Positions 9,067 through 16,531 of a DNA stretch of 30,309 bases are shown here, piece after piece. The first letter of the stretch is position 1; every line of letters starts with the position of its first letter. The notes below the pieces were generated by a model. It did not search any database. It worked only from the letters and a program-made list of their open reading frames with translations, and was not told where the DNA came from. The stretch comes from an uncultured Methanosarcinales archaeon (GTDB lineage Archaea; Nanobdellota; Nanobdellia; Woesearchaeales; ARS49). The stretch lies in assembly GCA_964637115.1 (NCBI GenBank), contig CAZWVL010000010.1:1-30309 (forward strand). Direction: 5' to 3'. The position numbers were made by a program, and so were the translations under genes.

Positions 9067-10242
9067 ATGAGTATTGACGGTATTGCAGCGCTTATTTTTG
9101 TTATTCTTCTTGGTTTGTTTTTGTGGAAGAAGCGTCATCAGGTGCAATTGCAAAAGGCTTTGTTCCCTATTCTTTATGTCGTTATGTACAAGTCTGCTTT
9201 TGGCTTGATAGCAATGGACAGGCTTGCCAGGAAGTTTCCGCGTACATTGCGCGTAATGGCTGACATTTCCGTCATTCTCGGCTTTATCGGCATGGTTTTA
9301 ATTGGCGCCCAGATGATCATTAACACAGTTGATGTTTTCGTAAGCACTGAGAGCATGCCCGGCATTCAGCCAGTTCTTCCAATTGAGGCTAAAGGTGTTT
9401 TCTTTGTTCCATTCCTGTACTGGATTCTGAGTATTTTCCTGCTTGCTTTGTTTCATGAGTTTGCGCACGGCGTGGTTGCGCGTGCTTATAAAATTCCTGT
9501 CAAAAGCAGCGGTTTTGCGTTTCTTTGCCTTATTCTTCCAATTATTCCTGCTGCTTTTGTTGAGCCTGATGAAAAAGTTGTGCAAAAGCGTTCCTACAGG
9601 CAGCAGTTGGGTGTTTTTGCTGCAGGCCCGATTTCAAATATGTTGTTTGCTGCAGTGATGTTTGGCGTATTTTTCCTTATCTCGCCTGCGCTAAATGCAG
9701 CATTCGATTCAAGTGGCGTTGAGATCGTAAAACTTACTGAGGAAGGTCCTGCCGCTGCTGCTGGGCTGCGTGAGGGCGACATTATCACGGCTTTAAATGA
9801 TGTAAAAATCACTGCAGTTGATAATATGACCAAAATATTGAATTCTTCAATGCCTGGCGGCCAACTTCTTATTCAAACTGCAAATAATTCTTTCACAGTC
9901 ATGCTTGCTCCAAACCCAAAGAACGCCTCAAAGGCATTTTTGGGCGTGCAAACTCGTAATTATCTTGTTGTCAAAGAAGATTTTGTTGCACGTTACGGAA
10001 AATGGCTTCCTCCTCTGTTGAAATGGTTTACTGGCCTTATTTTCTGGTTGTTTATGCTTAACATTGGAATTGGTCTTTTCAACTTGTTGCCAATCGGCCC
10101 ATTAGACGGCGGCAGGATGTTCCAGCTGGTCTGCTTCAAATTGTTCAAGAATAAGGCACTCGCATTCCGCATCTGGGGTTTTGTGAGCGTGTTCTTTATC
10201 GTCTTGATTATTGCGAATATGTTGGTTGGGTTTTTGCGCTAA
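9067..10242 (+). CDS. Site-2 protease (peptidase M50) with PDZ domain
   Basis: HEFAHG zinc motif, AFVEP, AGPISN, PDZ (GPAAAAGLREGDII), NLLPIGPLDGG. Confidence 0.93.
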   Translation: MSIDGIAALIFVILLGLFLWKKRHQVQLQKALFPILYVVMYKSAFGLIAMDRLARKFPRTLRVMADISVILGFIGMVLIGAQMIINTVDVFVSTESMPGIQPVLPIEAKGVFFVPFLYWILSIFLLALFHEFAHGVVARAYKIPVKSSGFAFLCLILPIIPAAFVEPDEKVVQKRSYRQQLGVFAAGPISNMLFAAVMFGVFFLISPALNAAFDSSGVEIVKLTEEGPAAAAGLREGDIITALNDVKITAVDNMTKILNSSMPGGQLLIQTANNSFTVMLAPNPKNASKAFLGVQTRNYLVVKEDFVARYGKWLPPLLKWFTGLIFWLFMLNIGIGLFNLLPIGPLDGGRMFQLVCFKLFKNKALAFRIWGFVSVFFIVLIIANMLVGFLR

Positions 10243-11702
10243 CCTTTCACATTTCCAATCGGCTTGAACGCAACTAGTTTCTTGCTTATTCCTGCCTTGT
10301 CCATCGTGTCCACTACTTCAGAAATTGGTTTGTATGCAAATCCTGCTTCTTCCGCAAGCCCTGAGTATGATGCTGTTCTGACATAAATTCCTCTTTTTTC
10401 CATTTCTTTCTGCAAGATGTCTCCTCTTACTTCTTTTCTTGCCCTTGTTCTGCTCATAGTTCTTCCGCTTCCATGCGCAGTGCTGCCAAATGTTTCTTCA
10501 AGAGCTTTATCGGTTCCTAACAAAAGATAGCTTCCTGTTTCCATCGAACCACCAACTATTACTGGCTGTCCAATCTTCCTGAAGCGTGGCGCTAATTCTG
10601 TTCTGCTTGGTCCAAAGCATCTTGTTGCTCCTTTTCTGTGTACTACTAGCTTTTTCTCTTTGTTGCCGAGCATATGCTTTTCTACTTTAGCAATGTTGTG
10701 TGCAACATCGTACACGAGATGCATTTCCATGTCTTCTGGACTTTTCTGGAACACGTTCTTGAAGCATTCTCTGATTCTATGTAAAATGACTTGTCTGTTC
10801 GCAAATGCCGCATTTGCCGCGCAGGCCATTGCGTGATAATAGTCTTGTCCTTCTTTGCTTGTGAATGGTGCGCAGGCTAATTCTGGATCTGGCACGGTTA
10901 TGTCATATTTTTTCATTGCTTCATAGAATACTTTCAAATAATCTGTTGCTACTTGGTGCCCGAATCCTCTGCTTCCGCAGTGTACCATTACGCATATCTG
11001 GTCTTCGCTGACTATTCCCAATTTTTCAGCAGCTTTTTTGTCAAATATTTGTCCCGCGTATTGGACTTCCAGATAATGATTTCCTGAGCCGAGCGTTCCT
11101 AATTGGCCTATGCCTCTGCTGATTGCTTTTTCTGAAACTTTGCTCGTTTCTGCGTGTTCTATGCATCCATAATCTTCTATTCTCTCAAGGTCTTCTTCCC
11201 AGCCGTATCCGTTCTCTACGCACCATTTTGCCCCGTTTTTCATCACGTCCTTGAATGTTTGTGGTGTTAATTTCACAAATCCTTTGCAGCCAACTCCGGA
11301 CGGCACTTGCTGAAATAACATATCAACAAGCATTTTCAGCTTGGGCTGTACTTCTTTGAAAGTTAAATTAGTCGTGACAAGTCTCATTCCGCAATTGATG
11401 TCAAATCCTATTCCGCCTGGTGAAATAACTCCGGAGTCTGGGTCAAATGCGGCCACTCCTCCGATTGGAAAGCCATAGCCTGAGTGCGCGTCTGGCATGC
11501 AGAGAGCGTGATTTTGTATTCCTTGCAGGCAAGCAACATTAGTCAATTGATCGTACACGGCAAGGTCCATTTCTTTGATGAGTTTCTCGCTGGCATAAAT
11601 TCTGGCAGGCACTCTCATTCCTTTCTTATAGCTCATCGGAATATCCCAGATGACGTCTCCTTTTCTTTCAAATTCCGGTACTTTTACATCTCTGTTTATC
11701 AT
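10239..11702 (-). CDS. rtcB: RNA-splicing/tRNA ligase RtcB
   Basis: PDAHSGYGFPIGG, GFDINCG, GNHYLE, HCGSRG, AHNIA, HRKGA, HGSGR. Confidence 0.97.
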   Translation of the reverse strand: MINRDVKVPEFERKGDVIWDIPMSYKKGMRVPARIYASEKLIKEMDLAVYDQLTNVACLQGIQNHALCMPDAHSGYGFPIGGVAAFDPDSGVISPGGIGFDINCGMRLVTTNLTFKEVQPKLKMLVDMLFQQVPSGVGCKGFVKLTPQTFKDVMKNGAKWCVENGYGWEEDLERIEDYGCIEHAETSKVSEKAISRGIGQLGTLGSGNHYLEVQYAGQIFDKKAAEKLGIVSEDQICVMVHCGSRGFGHQVATDYLKVFYEAMKKYDITVPDPELACAPFTSKEGQDYYHAMACAANAAFANRQVILHRIRECFKNVFQKSPEDMEMHLVYDVAHNIAKVEKHMLGNKEKKLVVHRKGATRCFGPSRTELAPRFRKIGQPVIVGGSMETGSYLLLGTDKALEETFGSTAHGSGRTMSRTRARKEVRGDILQKEMEKRGIYVRTASYSGLAEEAGFAYKPISEVVDTMDKAGISKKLVAFKPIGNVKG

Positions 11703-11812
11703 ATGTCAAGGAACGTAACGGTTGATTTTTAAGCATTATGTTTTAGAATGAGTTTTTCAACGTTTCCTTGACATCAGGAGGACGCAACAAAATGTATAGA
11801 ATTCGCGTCCGA

Positions 11813-12235
11813 CTATATGTCAAGGACCACAACTGCTTTCCACGTATCTTTCTTCTTTTCAACAAGCCAGTAATGCATTGTTACTGCCTTCACGTCCTGG
11901 TGCAGCTCTTGTTCATCCGGTTTTATGGTATCTCCAGTCAAAAGAGCAGTCACTTCCATTTTTTTCTCATCAACTTTAACTTGAATGTCGTGGAATACTA
12001 GTGCATCCTTATCCTTCAGATACACTATTTCTTCCAGGAAGTTGAACAGTAACTTGTCAACACTTTTTTCTTTCATCTTAATTTTTTTTACAATTTCCTG
12101 CTTGACAGATTTTGGATTCGCCAGGCTCTCAATAACAGCTTGCGCAGCACTTTGAAAAAGTTCAGTCAGATTCTTGCCAGTAGTTTCAAAAGCAACATCT
12201 GCCATTGCAATATCTTCGACAAATTTGAAGGGCAT
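11813..12235 (-). CDS. Archease (RtcB cofactor)
   Basis: N-terminal ADVAFE, LLFNFLEEIVY, C-terminal DVKAVTMH...VVLDI; directly upstream of rtcB. Confidence 0.93.
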   Translation of the reverse strand: MPFKFVEDIAMADVAFETTGKNLTELFQSAAQAVIESLANPKSVKQEIVKKIKMKEKSVDKLLFNFLEEIVYLKDKDALVFHDIQVKVDEKKMEVTALLTGDTIKPDEQELHQDVKAVTMHYWLVEKKKDTWKAVVVLDI

Positions 12236-13744: not shown

Positions 13745-14413
13745 CTACTTGAAGAACTCAAACCAGATTACGTCGTCTTCTGATCCTTTTTCGTATGAAA
13801 GTGAGAATGGTCCTTTTCCGATGCCGAATTTGTACCGATCTTCTTCAATGTCACAGTCGCGATATTCGCCGGCAACCCTGAAGCTGAATATGTTGGCATG
13901 TGCTTTGTATTTCCAGTAATCGTCCCCGCGTACTGCAAGTACAGTTGCATTTCGCACTTTAAACCCTCCTCCTGATTCATCTCCGAGTCTTACTGTCGGC
14001 ATGAATCCAAGCTTGTAGCGCGAATCGCGTTTTGGTTGTTCTTGCATTGCAAGTTCTGAAACAGTTGGCACGATGTTTCCTTCTTCGTCTTTGAATGATG
14101 GTTCAACTATTCCATCCAAAGTCGTGTCTGCCGTAAGCGCTCGCCATCCCGCTTTCAATGTGGCCTGTCCTGCTCTTTTCATTATTCTTTTTGCAGTGTG
14201 CTCAATTTGGTCATTTTCTTCATAGGATAGTTCCTGCCGAAATGGCTCGTTTGCCAGGTCTCTTAATTCTTGATTGTATGCCATTCGCTCTGCAACGCGT
14301 GCAAGCTGTTGCCGTGTCTGTTGTTCAAAGCGATCTTGATAGAAGTCGTTAATTATGCTGCATCCTTGGCACGCTACGCCTAAAGCCAGGGCCATCAATG
14401 TCTTCACAAACAT
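13745..14413 (-). CDS. Putative lipoprotein/secreted protein with beta-strand-rich C-terminal half
   Basis: Signal peptide with ACQGC lipobox-like segment; Gly/aromatic alternating strands; ends WFEFFK. Confidence 0.65.
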   Translation of the reverse strand: MFVKTLMALALGVACQGCSIINDFYQDRFEQQTRQQLARVAERMAYNQELRDLANEPFRQELSYEENDQIEHTAKRIMKRAGQATLKAGWRALTADTTLDGIVEPSFKDEEGNIVPTVSELAMQEQPKRDSRYKLGFMPTVRLGDESGGGFKVRNATVLAVRGDDYWKYKAHANIFSFRVAGEYRDCDIEEDRYKFGIGKGPFSLSYEKGSEDDVIWFEFFK

Positions 14414-14503: not shown

Positions 14504-14574
14504 GGGGCTGTAGTCTAGTGGTAGGATACAAGGTTCGGGACCTTGTGGCCCGTGTTCGAATCACGGCAGTCCCA
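14504..14574 (+). tRNA. tRNA-Pro (anticodon CGG), no encoded CCA, no intron
   Basis: Acceptor GGGGCTG/CAGTCCC; anticodon arm CAAGG-TTCGGGA-CCTTG; T arm CCGTG-TTCGAAT-CACGG; TATA TTTAAAA 14471-14477. Confidence 0.95.
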
Positions 14575-14575
14575 T

Positions 14576-15259
14576 ATGCTTTCAGAGGAATTTCTCGATT
14601 TCGCGCATAGAAAGATTGACGTTCCCGTAAAGCAGCTTTTTCCCAATCTTAATCTGGAAAAAATTAGGCAGCAGTTCTGGCGTTTTAATGTCAAAAATTT
14701 TCATCAGACTGTTTATGCGGTGGCGCGTGAGCTTTGGAACGGTCATTATGGTGCCATATTGTCAGAGCATGGTTTTTGGGACAGTACATATGCGAAGTTT
14801 TCCGGTCATTGTCATCAGTGTACTCCTGTTTTAGGTCTTGTTTTGCACGCGCTTGGCTTTGATGTTTCTTATTTGGAATGTTTCCGCATTAGAGAACATT
14901 TTTTGCAAACCGGCAGAATAGAGCAAGTGCCTCCGTCAGAAGAGCCGAATCCGGCTATGAAAGAAGAATTCTGCAGCATTAAGCGTATTCCGTATTGCTG
15001 TTTAGAAGTTATGATTGATGGACAGCCATATTATATGACTAGCAAGCATCTGAAGCCGCAGGGCGAGTGTGCTGTTGCATTGTTAACACCTGTCTGCTAT
15101 CGTGATTTTGTGGGAGTGTTTCATCATCAGGACAATCCGTCAAAGAGCGGCATATATTTGCAGCCAATTTCCAGAAATCCGGTTGTCTGGATGAAACAGA
15201 CTGCTAAAGACCCGTCTCCTGAACTATTTGCCACGTTTCTAAGAATAAAATTAATATGA
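14576..15259 (+). CDS. Hypothetical Cys-rich protein with arylamine N-acetyltransferase/transglutaminase-like motif (likely start 14576, after the tRNA)
   Basis: SGHCHQCTPVLGLVLHALGFDV resembles NAT GGxCxE...LxxLGFxV; CLEVMIDGQPYY resembles the NAT LxVxIDGxxY strand. Confidence 0.6.
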   Translation: MLSEEFLDFAHRKIDVPVKQLFPNLNLEKIRQQFWRFNVKNFHQTVYAVARELWNGHYGAILSEHGFWDSTYAKFSGHCHQCTPVLGLVLHALGFDVSYLECFRIREHFLQTGRIEQVPPSEEPNPAMKEEFCSIKRIPYCCLEVMIDGQPYYMTSKHLKPQGECAVALLTPVCYRDFVGVFHHQDNPSKSGIYLQPISRNPVVWMKQTAKDPSPELFATFLRIKLI

Positions 15260-15328
15260 ACCCGCCCAGATTCGAACTGGGGCATTCTCCCTGTGAAGGA
15301 GAAATCCTAACCACTAGATCACGGGTTC
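15257..15328 (-). tRNA. tRNA-Val (anticodon CAC), no encoded CCA, no intron
   Basis: Reverse complement GAACCCG TGATCTAGTGGTTAGGATT TCTCC-TTCACAG-GGAGA ATGC CCCAG-TTCGAAT-CTGGG CGGGTTC A. Confidence 0.93.
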
Positions 15329-15438: not shown

Positions 15439-16023
15439 ATGAACTGGGTAAATCCCGTCTATCTGAAAAGTGCAGCAGGTCTGAAAAAGCAGTTTAGTGC
15501 AAACAAGCCTTTTCCTCATCTTGTTCTTGGCAATTTTTTCGCATCTAAAATAAACAGGGTGGCGGAGCAACTTCTCAACGAAAAATTTGTCGAACAGAAC
15601 TCTGACTTATTTCAATTTCAGCAAACTGATGATTGCAAAAAAGCCACGCAGCCCATTGTAAAAGAATTTCACAAATTCTTTTCCTCAAAGGAGTTTATTT
15701 CCTTTATTGCCTCAATAACAGGAGAAAAATTGAAGTTTATTGACATGTCCGCGTTCATTTACGATGATACTGATTATCTTCTTCCTCATGATGACCGTTT
15801 GGAAGGCAGGAAAATCGCATACATTCTCCAGATAGGAGACAATTTAACAAAAGAAGACGGCGGTGCGTTGCAATTTTTAAAGGGGAAAAAGATTGCAAAA
15901 TCTATTCCTCCAACTTTCAATACTTTCACAATTTTTAAAGTCTCAAATAAATCCTGGCATCGGGTGCAGGAAGTGATTTCCAGTAAGAAGCGCGTTTCTT
16001 TTGCAGGGTGGTTCCATGGCTGA
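15439..16023 (+). CDS. 2OG-Fe(II) oxygenase, OGFOD1/Tpa1-like catalytic domain (prolyl hydroxylase family)
   Basis: PFPHLVLGNF; DLFQFQQTDD; IDMS..Y..TDYLLPHDDRLEGRKIAYIL (HxD); GGALQF; SWHRVQEV (distal His); RVSFAGWFHG (2OG-binding Arg). Confidence 0.9.
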   Translation: MNWVNPVYLKSAAGLKKQFSANKPFPHLVLGNFFASKINRVAEQLLNEKFVEQNSDLFQFQQTDDCKKATQPIVKEFHKFFSSKEFISFIASITGEKLKFIDMSAFIYDDTDYLLPHDDRLEGRKIAYILQIGDNLTKEDGGALQFLKGKKIAKSIPPTFNTFTIFKVSNKSWHRVQEVISSKKRVSFAGWFHG

Positions 16024-16531
16024 CGTAAATCACGAATATGACGAAAAAACCCTGAAAGAAGCCGCTAGTAGTTCCAAATTGTCTGGGAATTTGCAGCTTA
16101 TGTCATTTCTTTCAGCAGAGGCTTTCAATTCTTTCAAAAATTTGAAGTTCAAGCGCGTCTATATTCCTGGGAAATATTCATACAGTATTGCAAAGGCTCC
16201 TGAGTTGGGATTGCAGCCGGTTCTACAAAAACTTACTGGAAAGAAATTCAAGTTTTCCATTCTCAAATTCGAGCACGGCGATTATACAGTGCTTTATGAC
16301 GCATTGAGGCCGGCTAAAGGCTTTGTCGTTATGCTTGACTTGTTCGACTTTGACGAATCTTGGGGCGGTTATACCTCTTTTGTAAAAGATAACAAGGAAA
16401 TGGTTCGTGTTGTCGCAAAACAAAACGCTTTGATAATCATTAACCAGTCTGGCTTGAGGAGCTTTACTAAATATGTTAATCATCACGCTACTCATCCAAG
16501 GATTTTCTTATATGGTGTGCAACAGAAATAA
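16016..16531 (+). CDS. OGFOD1/Tpa1 C-terminal-like non-catalytic DSBH domain (Ofd1_CTDD-like)
   Basis: FEHGDYTVLYD, WGGYTSFV, NALIII, FTKYVNHH match the recalled OGFOD1/Tpa1 CTD pattern; no HxD; 8-nt overlap with the upstream gene. Confidence 0.75.
   Translation: MADVNHEYDEKTLKEAASSSKLSGNLQLMSFLSAEAFNSFKNLKFKRVYIPGKYSYSIAKAPELGLQPVLQKLTGKKFKFSILKFEHGDYTVLYDALRPAKGFVVMLDLFDFDESWGGYTSFVKDNKEMVRVVAKQNALIIINQSGLRSFTKYVNHHATHPRIFLYGVQQK

Follow-up and report, generated by a model that had tools for sequence, protein, structure and literature searches.

The locus

We describe a pair of overlapping genes in the archaeal contig CAZWVL010000010.1 (GenBank assembly GCA_964637115.1; positions 1 to 30,309 of the forward strand). 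'The window' in what follows is this whole stretch of 30,309 nucleotides (nt), which lies on contig 10 of a genome of 1.27 Mb in 27 contigs, 98% complete. Gene 1 encodes a domain of the OGFOD1/Tpa1 type, the catalytic part of a prolyl hydroxylase dependent on Fe(II) and 2-oxoglutarate (2OG). Gene 2 encodes a second, non-catalytic domain folded as a double-stranded beta-helix (DSBH), which in the eukaryotic enzymes belongs to the same chain. Both the identity and the architecture of the pair are well supported: it represents an archaeal variant of the OGFOD1 family, genuine, conserved and made of two subunits. Human OGFOD1 (PDB 4NHX/4NHY) is the trans-3-prolyl hydroxylase of Pro62 in the ribosomal protein uS12 (RPS23), Saccharomyces cerevisiae Tpa1 is a uS12 prolyl 3,4-dihydroxylase, and Schizosaccharomyces pombe Ofd1 is a 3-hydroxylase. 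With moderate confidence we read the locus as a self-contained operon for a heterodimeric prolyl hydroxylase of the OGFOD1/Tpa1/Ofd1 type, whose most likely substrate would be the proline of the KQPNSA loop of uS12.

The pair was first noticed in an inspection of the letters and open reading frames (ORFs) without database searches, called here the sequence-only reading. Its description of two coupled, overlapping genes agrees with direct reading of the sequence in coordinates, frames, overlap and motifs, and the locus is genuine (Table 1). The ATG of gene 2 lies one frame over from gene 1 and is made from the codon of His193 (caT) and the G of the Gly194 codon; the stop codon of gene 1 follows within the overlap. 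This junction probably serves translational coupling. Judged by archaeal promoter spacing, the TATA-like box upstream of gene 1 is a possible promoter of a leaderless or near-leaderless transcript of the two genes; the same AT-rich box also faces a divergent tRNA-Val gene.

Table 1. Features of the two-gene locus, in window coordinates
Feature	Position	Strand	Size or placement	Assignment
TATA-like box TTTAAAA	15408..15414	+	25-31 nt upstream of gene-1 ATG	Putative promoter element (direct sequence reading)
Gene 1	15439..16023	+	194 aa	OGFOD1/Tpa1-type 2OG-Fe(II) prolyl hydroxylase N-domain; C-terminal end ...GWFHG, then TGA
H117-D118-D119 codons	15787..15795	+		HxD of iron triad; OGFOD1 H155/D157 (alignment to 4nhx)
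H174 codon	15958..15960	+		Distal iron-binding histidine (SWH); OGFOD1 H218
R185-V186-S187 codons	15991..15999	+		RxS motif, 2OG C-5 carboxylate; OGFOD1 R230/S232
Gene 1/gene 2 overlap	16016..16023	+	8 nt	ATGGCTGA
Gene 2	16016..16531	+	171 aa	Non-catalytic Ofd1_CTDD-type second DSBH domain

Gene 1, the catalytic subunit

Gene 1 matches the Pfam families 2OG-FeII_Oxy_4 (2.3e-24) and 2OG-FeII_Oxy_3 (1.1e-14), and no other gene of the host genome belongs to the latter. Against all PDB sequences its best match is human OGFOD1 (4nhx; E = 7.7e-33, far beyond chance), followed by yeast Tpa1 (7.6e-8), and every other chain scores 0.05 or worse; the kinship of gene 1 is specifically with OGFOD1, not with other prolyl hydroxylases. 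Stand-alone homologues of about 190-210 amino acids (aa) form more than 200 clusters, and some homologues are already auto-annotated as 'Rps23 Pro-64 3,4-dihydroxylase Tpa1-like'. One homologue, in the Woesearchaeota metagenome-assembled genome (MAG) UBA10207 (L036:1746-2804), is 352 aa long with an N-terminal extension of about 150 residues; gene 2 follows it with an 8-nt overlap.

The sequence-only reading had described an intact active site (PHDD, SWH, RVS) in a protein ending at GWFHG, and the alignment to OGFOD1 bears this out: H117/D119 and H174 coincide with the iron triad of OGFOD1 and R185/S187 with its RxS motif, the roles of these residues being those reported for the human enzyme (PMC4396695). 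The crystallised OGFOD1 chain has 20 extra N-terminal residues, as seen from the position of the triad, and these are allowed for in the numbering. L57, F58, L114 and R124 of gene 1 align with OGFOD1 L95, Y96, L152 and R162, F58 being a conservative replacement; these are substrate-groove residues at which mutation reduces activity (PMC4396695). Across 43 aligned gene-1 homologues from archaea, seven residues (H117, D119, H174, R185, L57, L114 and R124) never vary. The crystallographic limits of OGFOD1 are 24-238 for the N-terminal domain (NTD), 239-269 for the linker and 270-542 for the C-terminal domain (CTD) (PMC4396695), and gene 1 ends one residue beyond the end of the NTD. The assignment of gene 1, by sequence, as an OGFOD1-type catalytic domain with intact catalytic residues is well supported.

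Gene 2, an inactive paralogue

Gene 2 taken singly scores 20.9 bits against the Pfam family Ofd1_CTDD, below the cut-off of 27, and has no match among PDB sequences; its identity is settled by a family profile, prepared from an alignment of 21 relatives and the copies from related genomes. The profile matches human OGFOD1 with E = 1.1e-26, again far beyond chance, over chain residues 288-386 and 456-544, covering all of the CTD except the disordered acidic loop (387-455 of the crystallised chain, skipped). It also matches Tpa1 (3.4e-5) and the isolated CTD of Ofd1 (5e-5). All 22 members of the gene-2 family match Ofd1_CTDD (PF10637), the best at 1.1e-19. The AlphaFold2 model of gene 2 has a predicted local distance difference test score (pLDDT) of 91.7, and its best Foldseek matches are OGFOD1 (query-normalised template-modelling score, TMq, 0.85) and the Ofd1 CTD (6e0t, 0.84), then Tpa1. 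The likeness of both genes to OGFOD1, domain boundary included, had been proposed in the sequence-only reading and is upheld by these searches.

Compared profile to profile with hhalign, the gene-1 and gene-2 families align with a probability of 99.3% (E = 3.6e-20, 174 columns), and the two genes are therefore paralogues. The same comparison aligns Y94, A96 and T151 of gene 2 with the metal ligands His, Asp and His of gene 1, in keeping with the earlier description of a second DSBH domain without the HxD motif. The similar starts of the two proteins had been taken as a trace of ancient tandem duplication. Gene 1 opens with NWVNPVYL, gene 2 with ADVNHEYD and the relatives of gene 2 with DWLNPAY or WVNPTYL; the C-domain of human OGFOD1 opens with DWINPTYL, the same W-x-N-P-x-Y motif as in both genes. 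The similarity of the starts is real, and the two genes are ancient paralogues. That gene 2 is an Ofd1_CTDD domain, paralogous to gene 1 and without any of the three metal ligands, is well supported.

Two genes rather than one

The split is real and old. Among 41 related genomes searched with gene 1, the gene was found in 14, and gene 2 follows it in another frame wherever the contig allows. Another 28 loci, all of two ORFs, came from a pattern scan in which each prokaryotic species was represented by one genome. Most of these 42 related loci repeat the junction ATGnnTRA, with the ATG of gene 2 usually inside the His-Gly codons of GWFHG, where its T belongs to the His codon CAT and its G to the next codon, and with the stop two codons further on; the other junctions have overlaps of 4, 11 or 13 nt or spacers of 11 and 395 nt, and the frame offset is +1 or +2. 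All of the approximately 40 loci inspected, from separate assemblies and at 40-90% identity, keep the two-ORF layout. This excludes an assembly frameshift.

The two ORFs could in principle be one gene, interrupted by an assembly frameshift or decayed to a pseudogene, or else joined by a programmed +1 frameshift into a fused OGFOD1-like chain. A +1 overlap beside a stop codon does resemble some programmed frameshift sites, but the recurrence of the split over so many separate assemblies speaks against this account, which we hold to be very improbable. The codons before the gene-1 stop vary (GGC, GGT, GCT, GAT, AAT, GAA), and the conserved element is the ATG. Gene 2 begins at the CTD boundary, without the 31-residue linker of OGFOD1. 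Programmed frameshifting in particular was rejected, given the variable geometry of the junction (both offsets, varied overlaps and spacers) and the lack of a conserved slippery motif.

Predicted heterodimer

Complex prediction of gene 1 with gene 2 gave an interaction prediction score from aligned errors (ipSAE) of 0.89 in three runs, whereas the highest of three controls reached 0.01; the pLDDT of the partner is 89 and the contacts agree between runs. The mark of the prediction tool is reached by 58 of 80 solved complexes and by 2 of 110 mismatched pairs. On the gene-1 side the predicted interface comprises residues 56-59, equivalent to the OGFOD1 beta4-beta5 hairpin, an element of the contact between NTD and CTD (PMC4396695), and residues 111-117. 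In the single-chain enzymes the two domains pack together by way of this hairpin and the minor sheets. On the gene-2 side it comprises the two most conserved motifs of that protein, GDYTVL (88-93) and FTKYVNH (150-157), and would offer an explanation for their conservation. The heterodimer put forward in the sequence-only reading is supported at the level of prediction, although the pass may reflect likeness to the solved structures of OGFOD1 and Tpa1.

Comparison with known enzymes

The pair shares with OGFOD1 the catalytic N-domain with its HxD...H triad, RxS motif and substrate-groove residues, and the ligand-less second DSBH domain of the Ofd1_CTDD family; the predicted surface between the subunits would use the hairpin and sheet that join the NTD and CTD of OGFOD1. 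Unlike OGFOD1 it consists of two polypeptides from two overlapping genes, has neither the proline-rich linker (31 residues, 239-269) nor the acidic CTD loop of about 60 residues, carries Gln in gene 1 at the position of Tyr169, and is found in an archaeon without a respiratory oxidase. With Tpa1 and Ofd1 it has in common two DSBH domains of which only the first is active (E values as given above). The 95-residue helical linker of Tpa1 and the dimerisation elements of its CTD (PMC4396695) are without archaeal counterpart, and the pair is nearer to OGFOD1 than to Tpa1.

A prokaryotic prolyl hydroxylase of DSBH fold that acts on the translation machinery is also known in bacteria, namely PPHD (Pseudomonas, PDB 4IW3/4J25). 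The single-domain bacterial enzymes have no Ofd1_CTDD domain or subunit, and their similarity to gene 1 is marginal (E = 0.8). Members of the OGFOD1 family are single polypeptides with a linker, whereas every archaeal locus examined has two ORFs; since the domains sit on two polypeptides without a linker, we file the locus as a variant rather than as a plain member of the family.

Distribution

The MAGs that hold close relatives of the locus are labelled Woesearchaeota or Nanoarchaeia, and the host is accordingly a DPANN-type archaeon of the Woesearchaeota/Nanoarchaeia type, as the sequence-only reading had supposed. We examined 401 high-quality genomes from 280 genera of the host's phylum. 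A homologue of gene 2 is present in 73 of the genomes and 57 of the genera, in every case in an open frame of fewer than 300 codons. Genome G293 carries the pair twice, each copy on its own contig. In-frame stops occur in some gene-2 copies (G257 with three; G335, G399 and G226 with one apiece), which suggests decay in some lineages.

Outside the phylum, the split pair is found in 6 of 83 Heimdallarchaeia genomes, with one copy on a contig of >660 kb, and these six are the only matches among 400 Asgard genomes. Horita et al. [quoted passage not shown] Full-text literature searches that combined OGFOD1, Tpa1 or Ofd1 with the names of archaeal groups turned up no account of a family member in archaea.

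Relation to the fused eukaryotic form

A word-indexed search with gene 1 for longer proteins returned a single match, beetle OGFOD1, and is uninformative on fused prokaryotic forms. An exhaustive search of 1.84 billion representative proteins with gene 1 returned 1684 matches. Among the best 150, short proteins (about 200 aa) are mixed with long ones (411-998 aa) that have both NTD and CTD. The long two-domain proteins that bear a name are eukaryotic (Rozella, Amorphochlora, beetle), and two further ones sit on contigs with eukaryotic genes.

Trees separate the two forms. In the N-domain tree one branch divides short from fused proteins (support 97), and in a tree of the concatenated N and C domains (IQ-TREE, LG+C20 with posterior mean site frequencies) the fused clade is set apart with support 100, the archaeal sequences forming one clade outside it. 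In trees built jointly from all N and C domains, the two kinds of domain part with full support. Split and fused forms are present among the N domains and among the C domains, so the duplication is older than the divergence of split and fused forms. Rooted by the paralogue, both halves place the root between the archaeal and the fused clades (moderate supports, 51-80). It follows that the archaeal pairs are not a recent capture from within the sampled eukaryotes, and that the eukaryotic gene has no origin inside the DPANN diversity sampled. With two clades and the root between them, the trees fit fusion and fission alike, and the pre-fusion form of the eukaryotic enzyme that the sequence-only reading suggested is no more than a candidate.

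A FastTree of all N and C domains gives weak support to a place next to the fused clade for two Asgard N-domains. In the concatenated IQ-TREE the Asgard pairs are one clade that groups with some DPANN sequences (support 95), likewise in the paralogue-rooted IQ-TREE. Forcing the Asgard and fused sequences together costs 5.5 log-likelihood units and is not rejected (approximately unbiased test, p = 0.358). A sister position of the Asgard pairs to eukaryotes is on these sequences neither shown nor rejected, and we claim no descent.

One fused protein sits on a prokaryote-type contig. P0157, of 426 aa with NTD and CTD, is encoded on a 23-kb metagenomic contig from SRR6202010 (L050:10001-11281), where the other genes look prokaryotic by NCBIfam: AhpC, DsbD, exodeoxyribonuclease III, pyruvate kinase, acyl-CoA dehydrogenase and a B12 radical-SAM enzyme. 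The trees place P0157 inside the eukaryote-type fused clade, the Atlas clusters that match it are eukaryotic OGFOD1 only, and the protein was not found among the 400 Asgard genomes. It may represent a transfer from a eukaryote to a prokaryote.

Such a transfer bears on another account of the locus, in which the pair is a laterally acquired relic of a broken eukaryotic OGFOD1 gene without an archaeal ribosomal role, or a mobile accessory only. P0157 lies on a prokaryote-type contig, so movement across domains may occur; the spread of the pair is patchy, in the phylum as in Asgard archaea, and the in-frame stops of four genomes would suit a relic. Set against this are the single archaeal clade outside the fused one, the paralogue root that keeps the archaeal forms from nesting in the sampled eukaryotes, and catalytic and interface residues that are invariant across deep divergence, which implies purifying selection. 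We judge the relic account improbable.

A wider proposal reaches beyond the locus: oxygen-dependent hydroxylation of uS12 at the decoding centre would be pre-eukaryotic, a two-subunit enzyme that came from tandem duplication in archaea would modify uS12 in DPANN and some Heimdall-group archaea, and the single-chain OGFOD1 of eukaryotes would have arisen when such a pair fused. We offer this as a tentative possibility, on the doubtful side.

Proposed function

In the operon that we favour, gene 1 would provide the catalytic subunit, dependent on Fe(II), 2OG and O2. Gene 2, which starts inside the final codons of gene 1, would probably be translated by coupling. Its product would be a catalytically dead paralogous DSBH subunit, docked on the catalytic one by those sheet and hairpin surfaces with which the single-chain eukaryotic enzyme holds its domains together. 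By analogy, the most likely substrate would be the KQPNSA-loop proline of uS12, at the decoding centre, and its hydroxylation would take place only in the presence of O2. We infer the dimer (from prediction), the coupling, the substrate and any effect on translation; what the comparisons show is that both halves are homologous to the eukaryotic domains, that gene 1 keeps its catalytic residues and gene 2 has lost its ligands, and that the split is conserved, with the distribution given above.

Some points speak for this function and some against it. In its favour, the uS12 of the host (contig 7) carries EAKQPNSAMRKC; the KQPNSA loop is conserved in uS12 generally, so its presence is permissive and does not discriminate. 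Against it, the 2OG ligand Tyr169 of OGFOD1 is replaced by Gln131 in gene 1 and by Asn in the family consensus. The archaeal members are known from sequence and prediction. Neither a haem-copper oxidase nor a cytochrome bd oxidase was found in the host genome; lacking a terminal oxidase, the host is no aerobe, and only incidental O2 would be at the disposal of the enzyme. Superoxide dismutase (SOD) counts in favour. The host has an Fe/Mn SOD and hence meets oxygen. The SOD domain is present in 230 of the 401 phylum genomes, and Fe/Mn SOD occurs in 70/73 genomes with the pair and in 160/328 without it (odds ratio 24.5), an overlap that was counted by hand over related, non-independent genomes and is co-occurrence rather than a valid test. 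Within the host's own family the figures are 12/13 with the pair and 10/16 without, a contrast in the same direction that is not significant (p = 0.09). The tally includes three unpublished genomes (G463, G023, G499), SOD-positive and pairless, without which it is 70/73 against 157/325; no other claim rests on them.

The co-occurrence suggests that the pair marks DPANN lineages living with oxygen. The sequence-only reading had called an O2-dependent enzyme unexpected in a presumably fermentative symbiont: the host has no terminal oxidase, but its SOD and the presence of the pair in 73 of 401 genomes, nearly always with SOD, soften the surprise.

The same heterodimeric oxygenase might instead act on another substrate. 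This could be a different translation protein, as EF-Tu is for bacterial PPHD, or a factor of release or elongation; free proline and small molecules are further candidates, and so is nucleic acid, on which Tpa1 has been claimed to act. In NCBIfam, gene 1 weakly matches the peptide-modifying 2OG oxygenase YhhC (33.7 bits, cut-off 150), the Tyr169 equivalent differs, and the pair has no conserved linkage to the uS12 gene. On the other side, gene 1 is much nearer to OGFOD1 than to any chain outside the family (at best 0.05), and both the substrate-groove residues defined by mutagenesis and the family-specific second domain are kept. A substrate other than uS12 is in our estimate rather unlikely.

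Neighbouring genes

Housekeeping genes of archaeal kind share the window with the pair: RtcB, archease, thymidylate kinase, TatD and a dCTP-deaminase-like gene. The tRNA-splicing ligase RtcB (E = 2.4e-172) adjoins its activator archease (E = 5.7e-31) at 10239-12235 on the minus strand, a textbook archaeal pair. Two ORFs have no Pfam family. One, of 222 codons (13745-14413, minus strand), begins with a lipoprotein-like signal (...ALALGVACQGC...). The other, of 238 codons (14543-15259, plus strand), lies between convergent genes for tRNA-Pro (14504-14574, plus strand) and tRNA-Val (15257-15328, minus strand) and overlaps the two; in truth it probably begins downstream of tRNA-Pro.

Across 38 compared loci no neighbour is conserved beyond the pair itself, which is a self-contained module. 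The dCTP-deaminase-like and TatD neighbours are common to close relatives only, and so give no clue to function.

Significance

In eukaryotes, OGFOD1, Tpa1 and Ofd1 tie the availability of oxygen, iron and 2OG to the accuracy of translation. Structural work has regarded both the family and its two-domain architecture as specific to eukaryotes, and the archaeal pair widens the family to archaea. A separate inactive subunit is a natural experiment on the role of the inactive domain, which can be expressed, omitted or swapped, and so compact a pair should suit recombinant co-expression, biochemistry and crystallography. The pair also makes a pre-eukaryotic origin of ribosomal prolyl hydroxylation testable.

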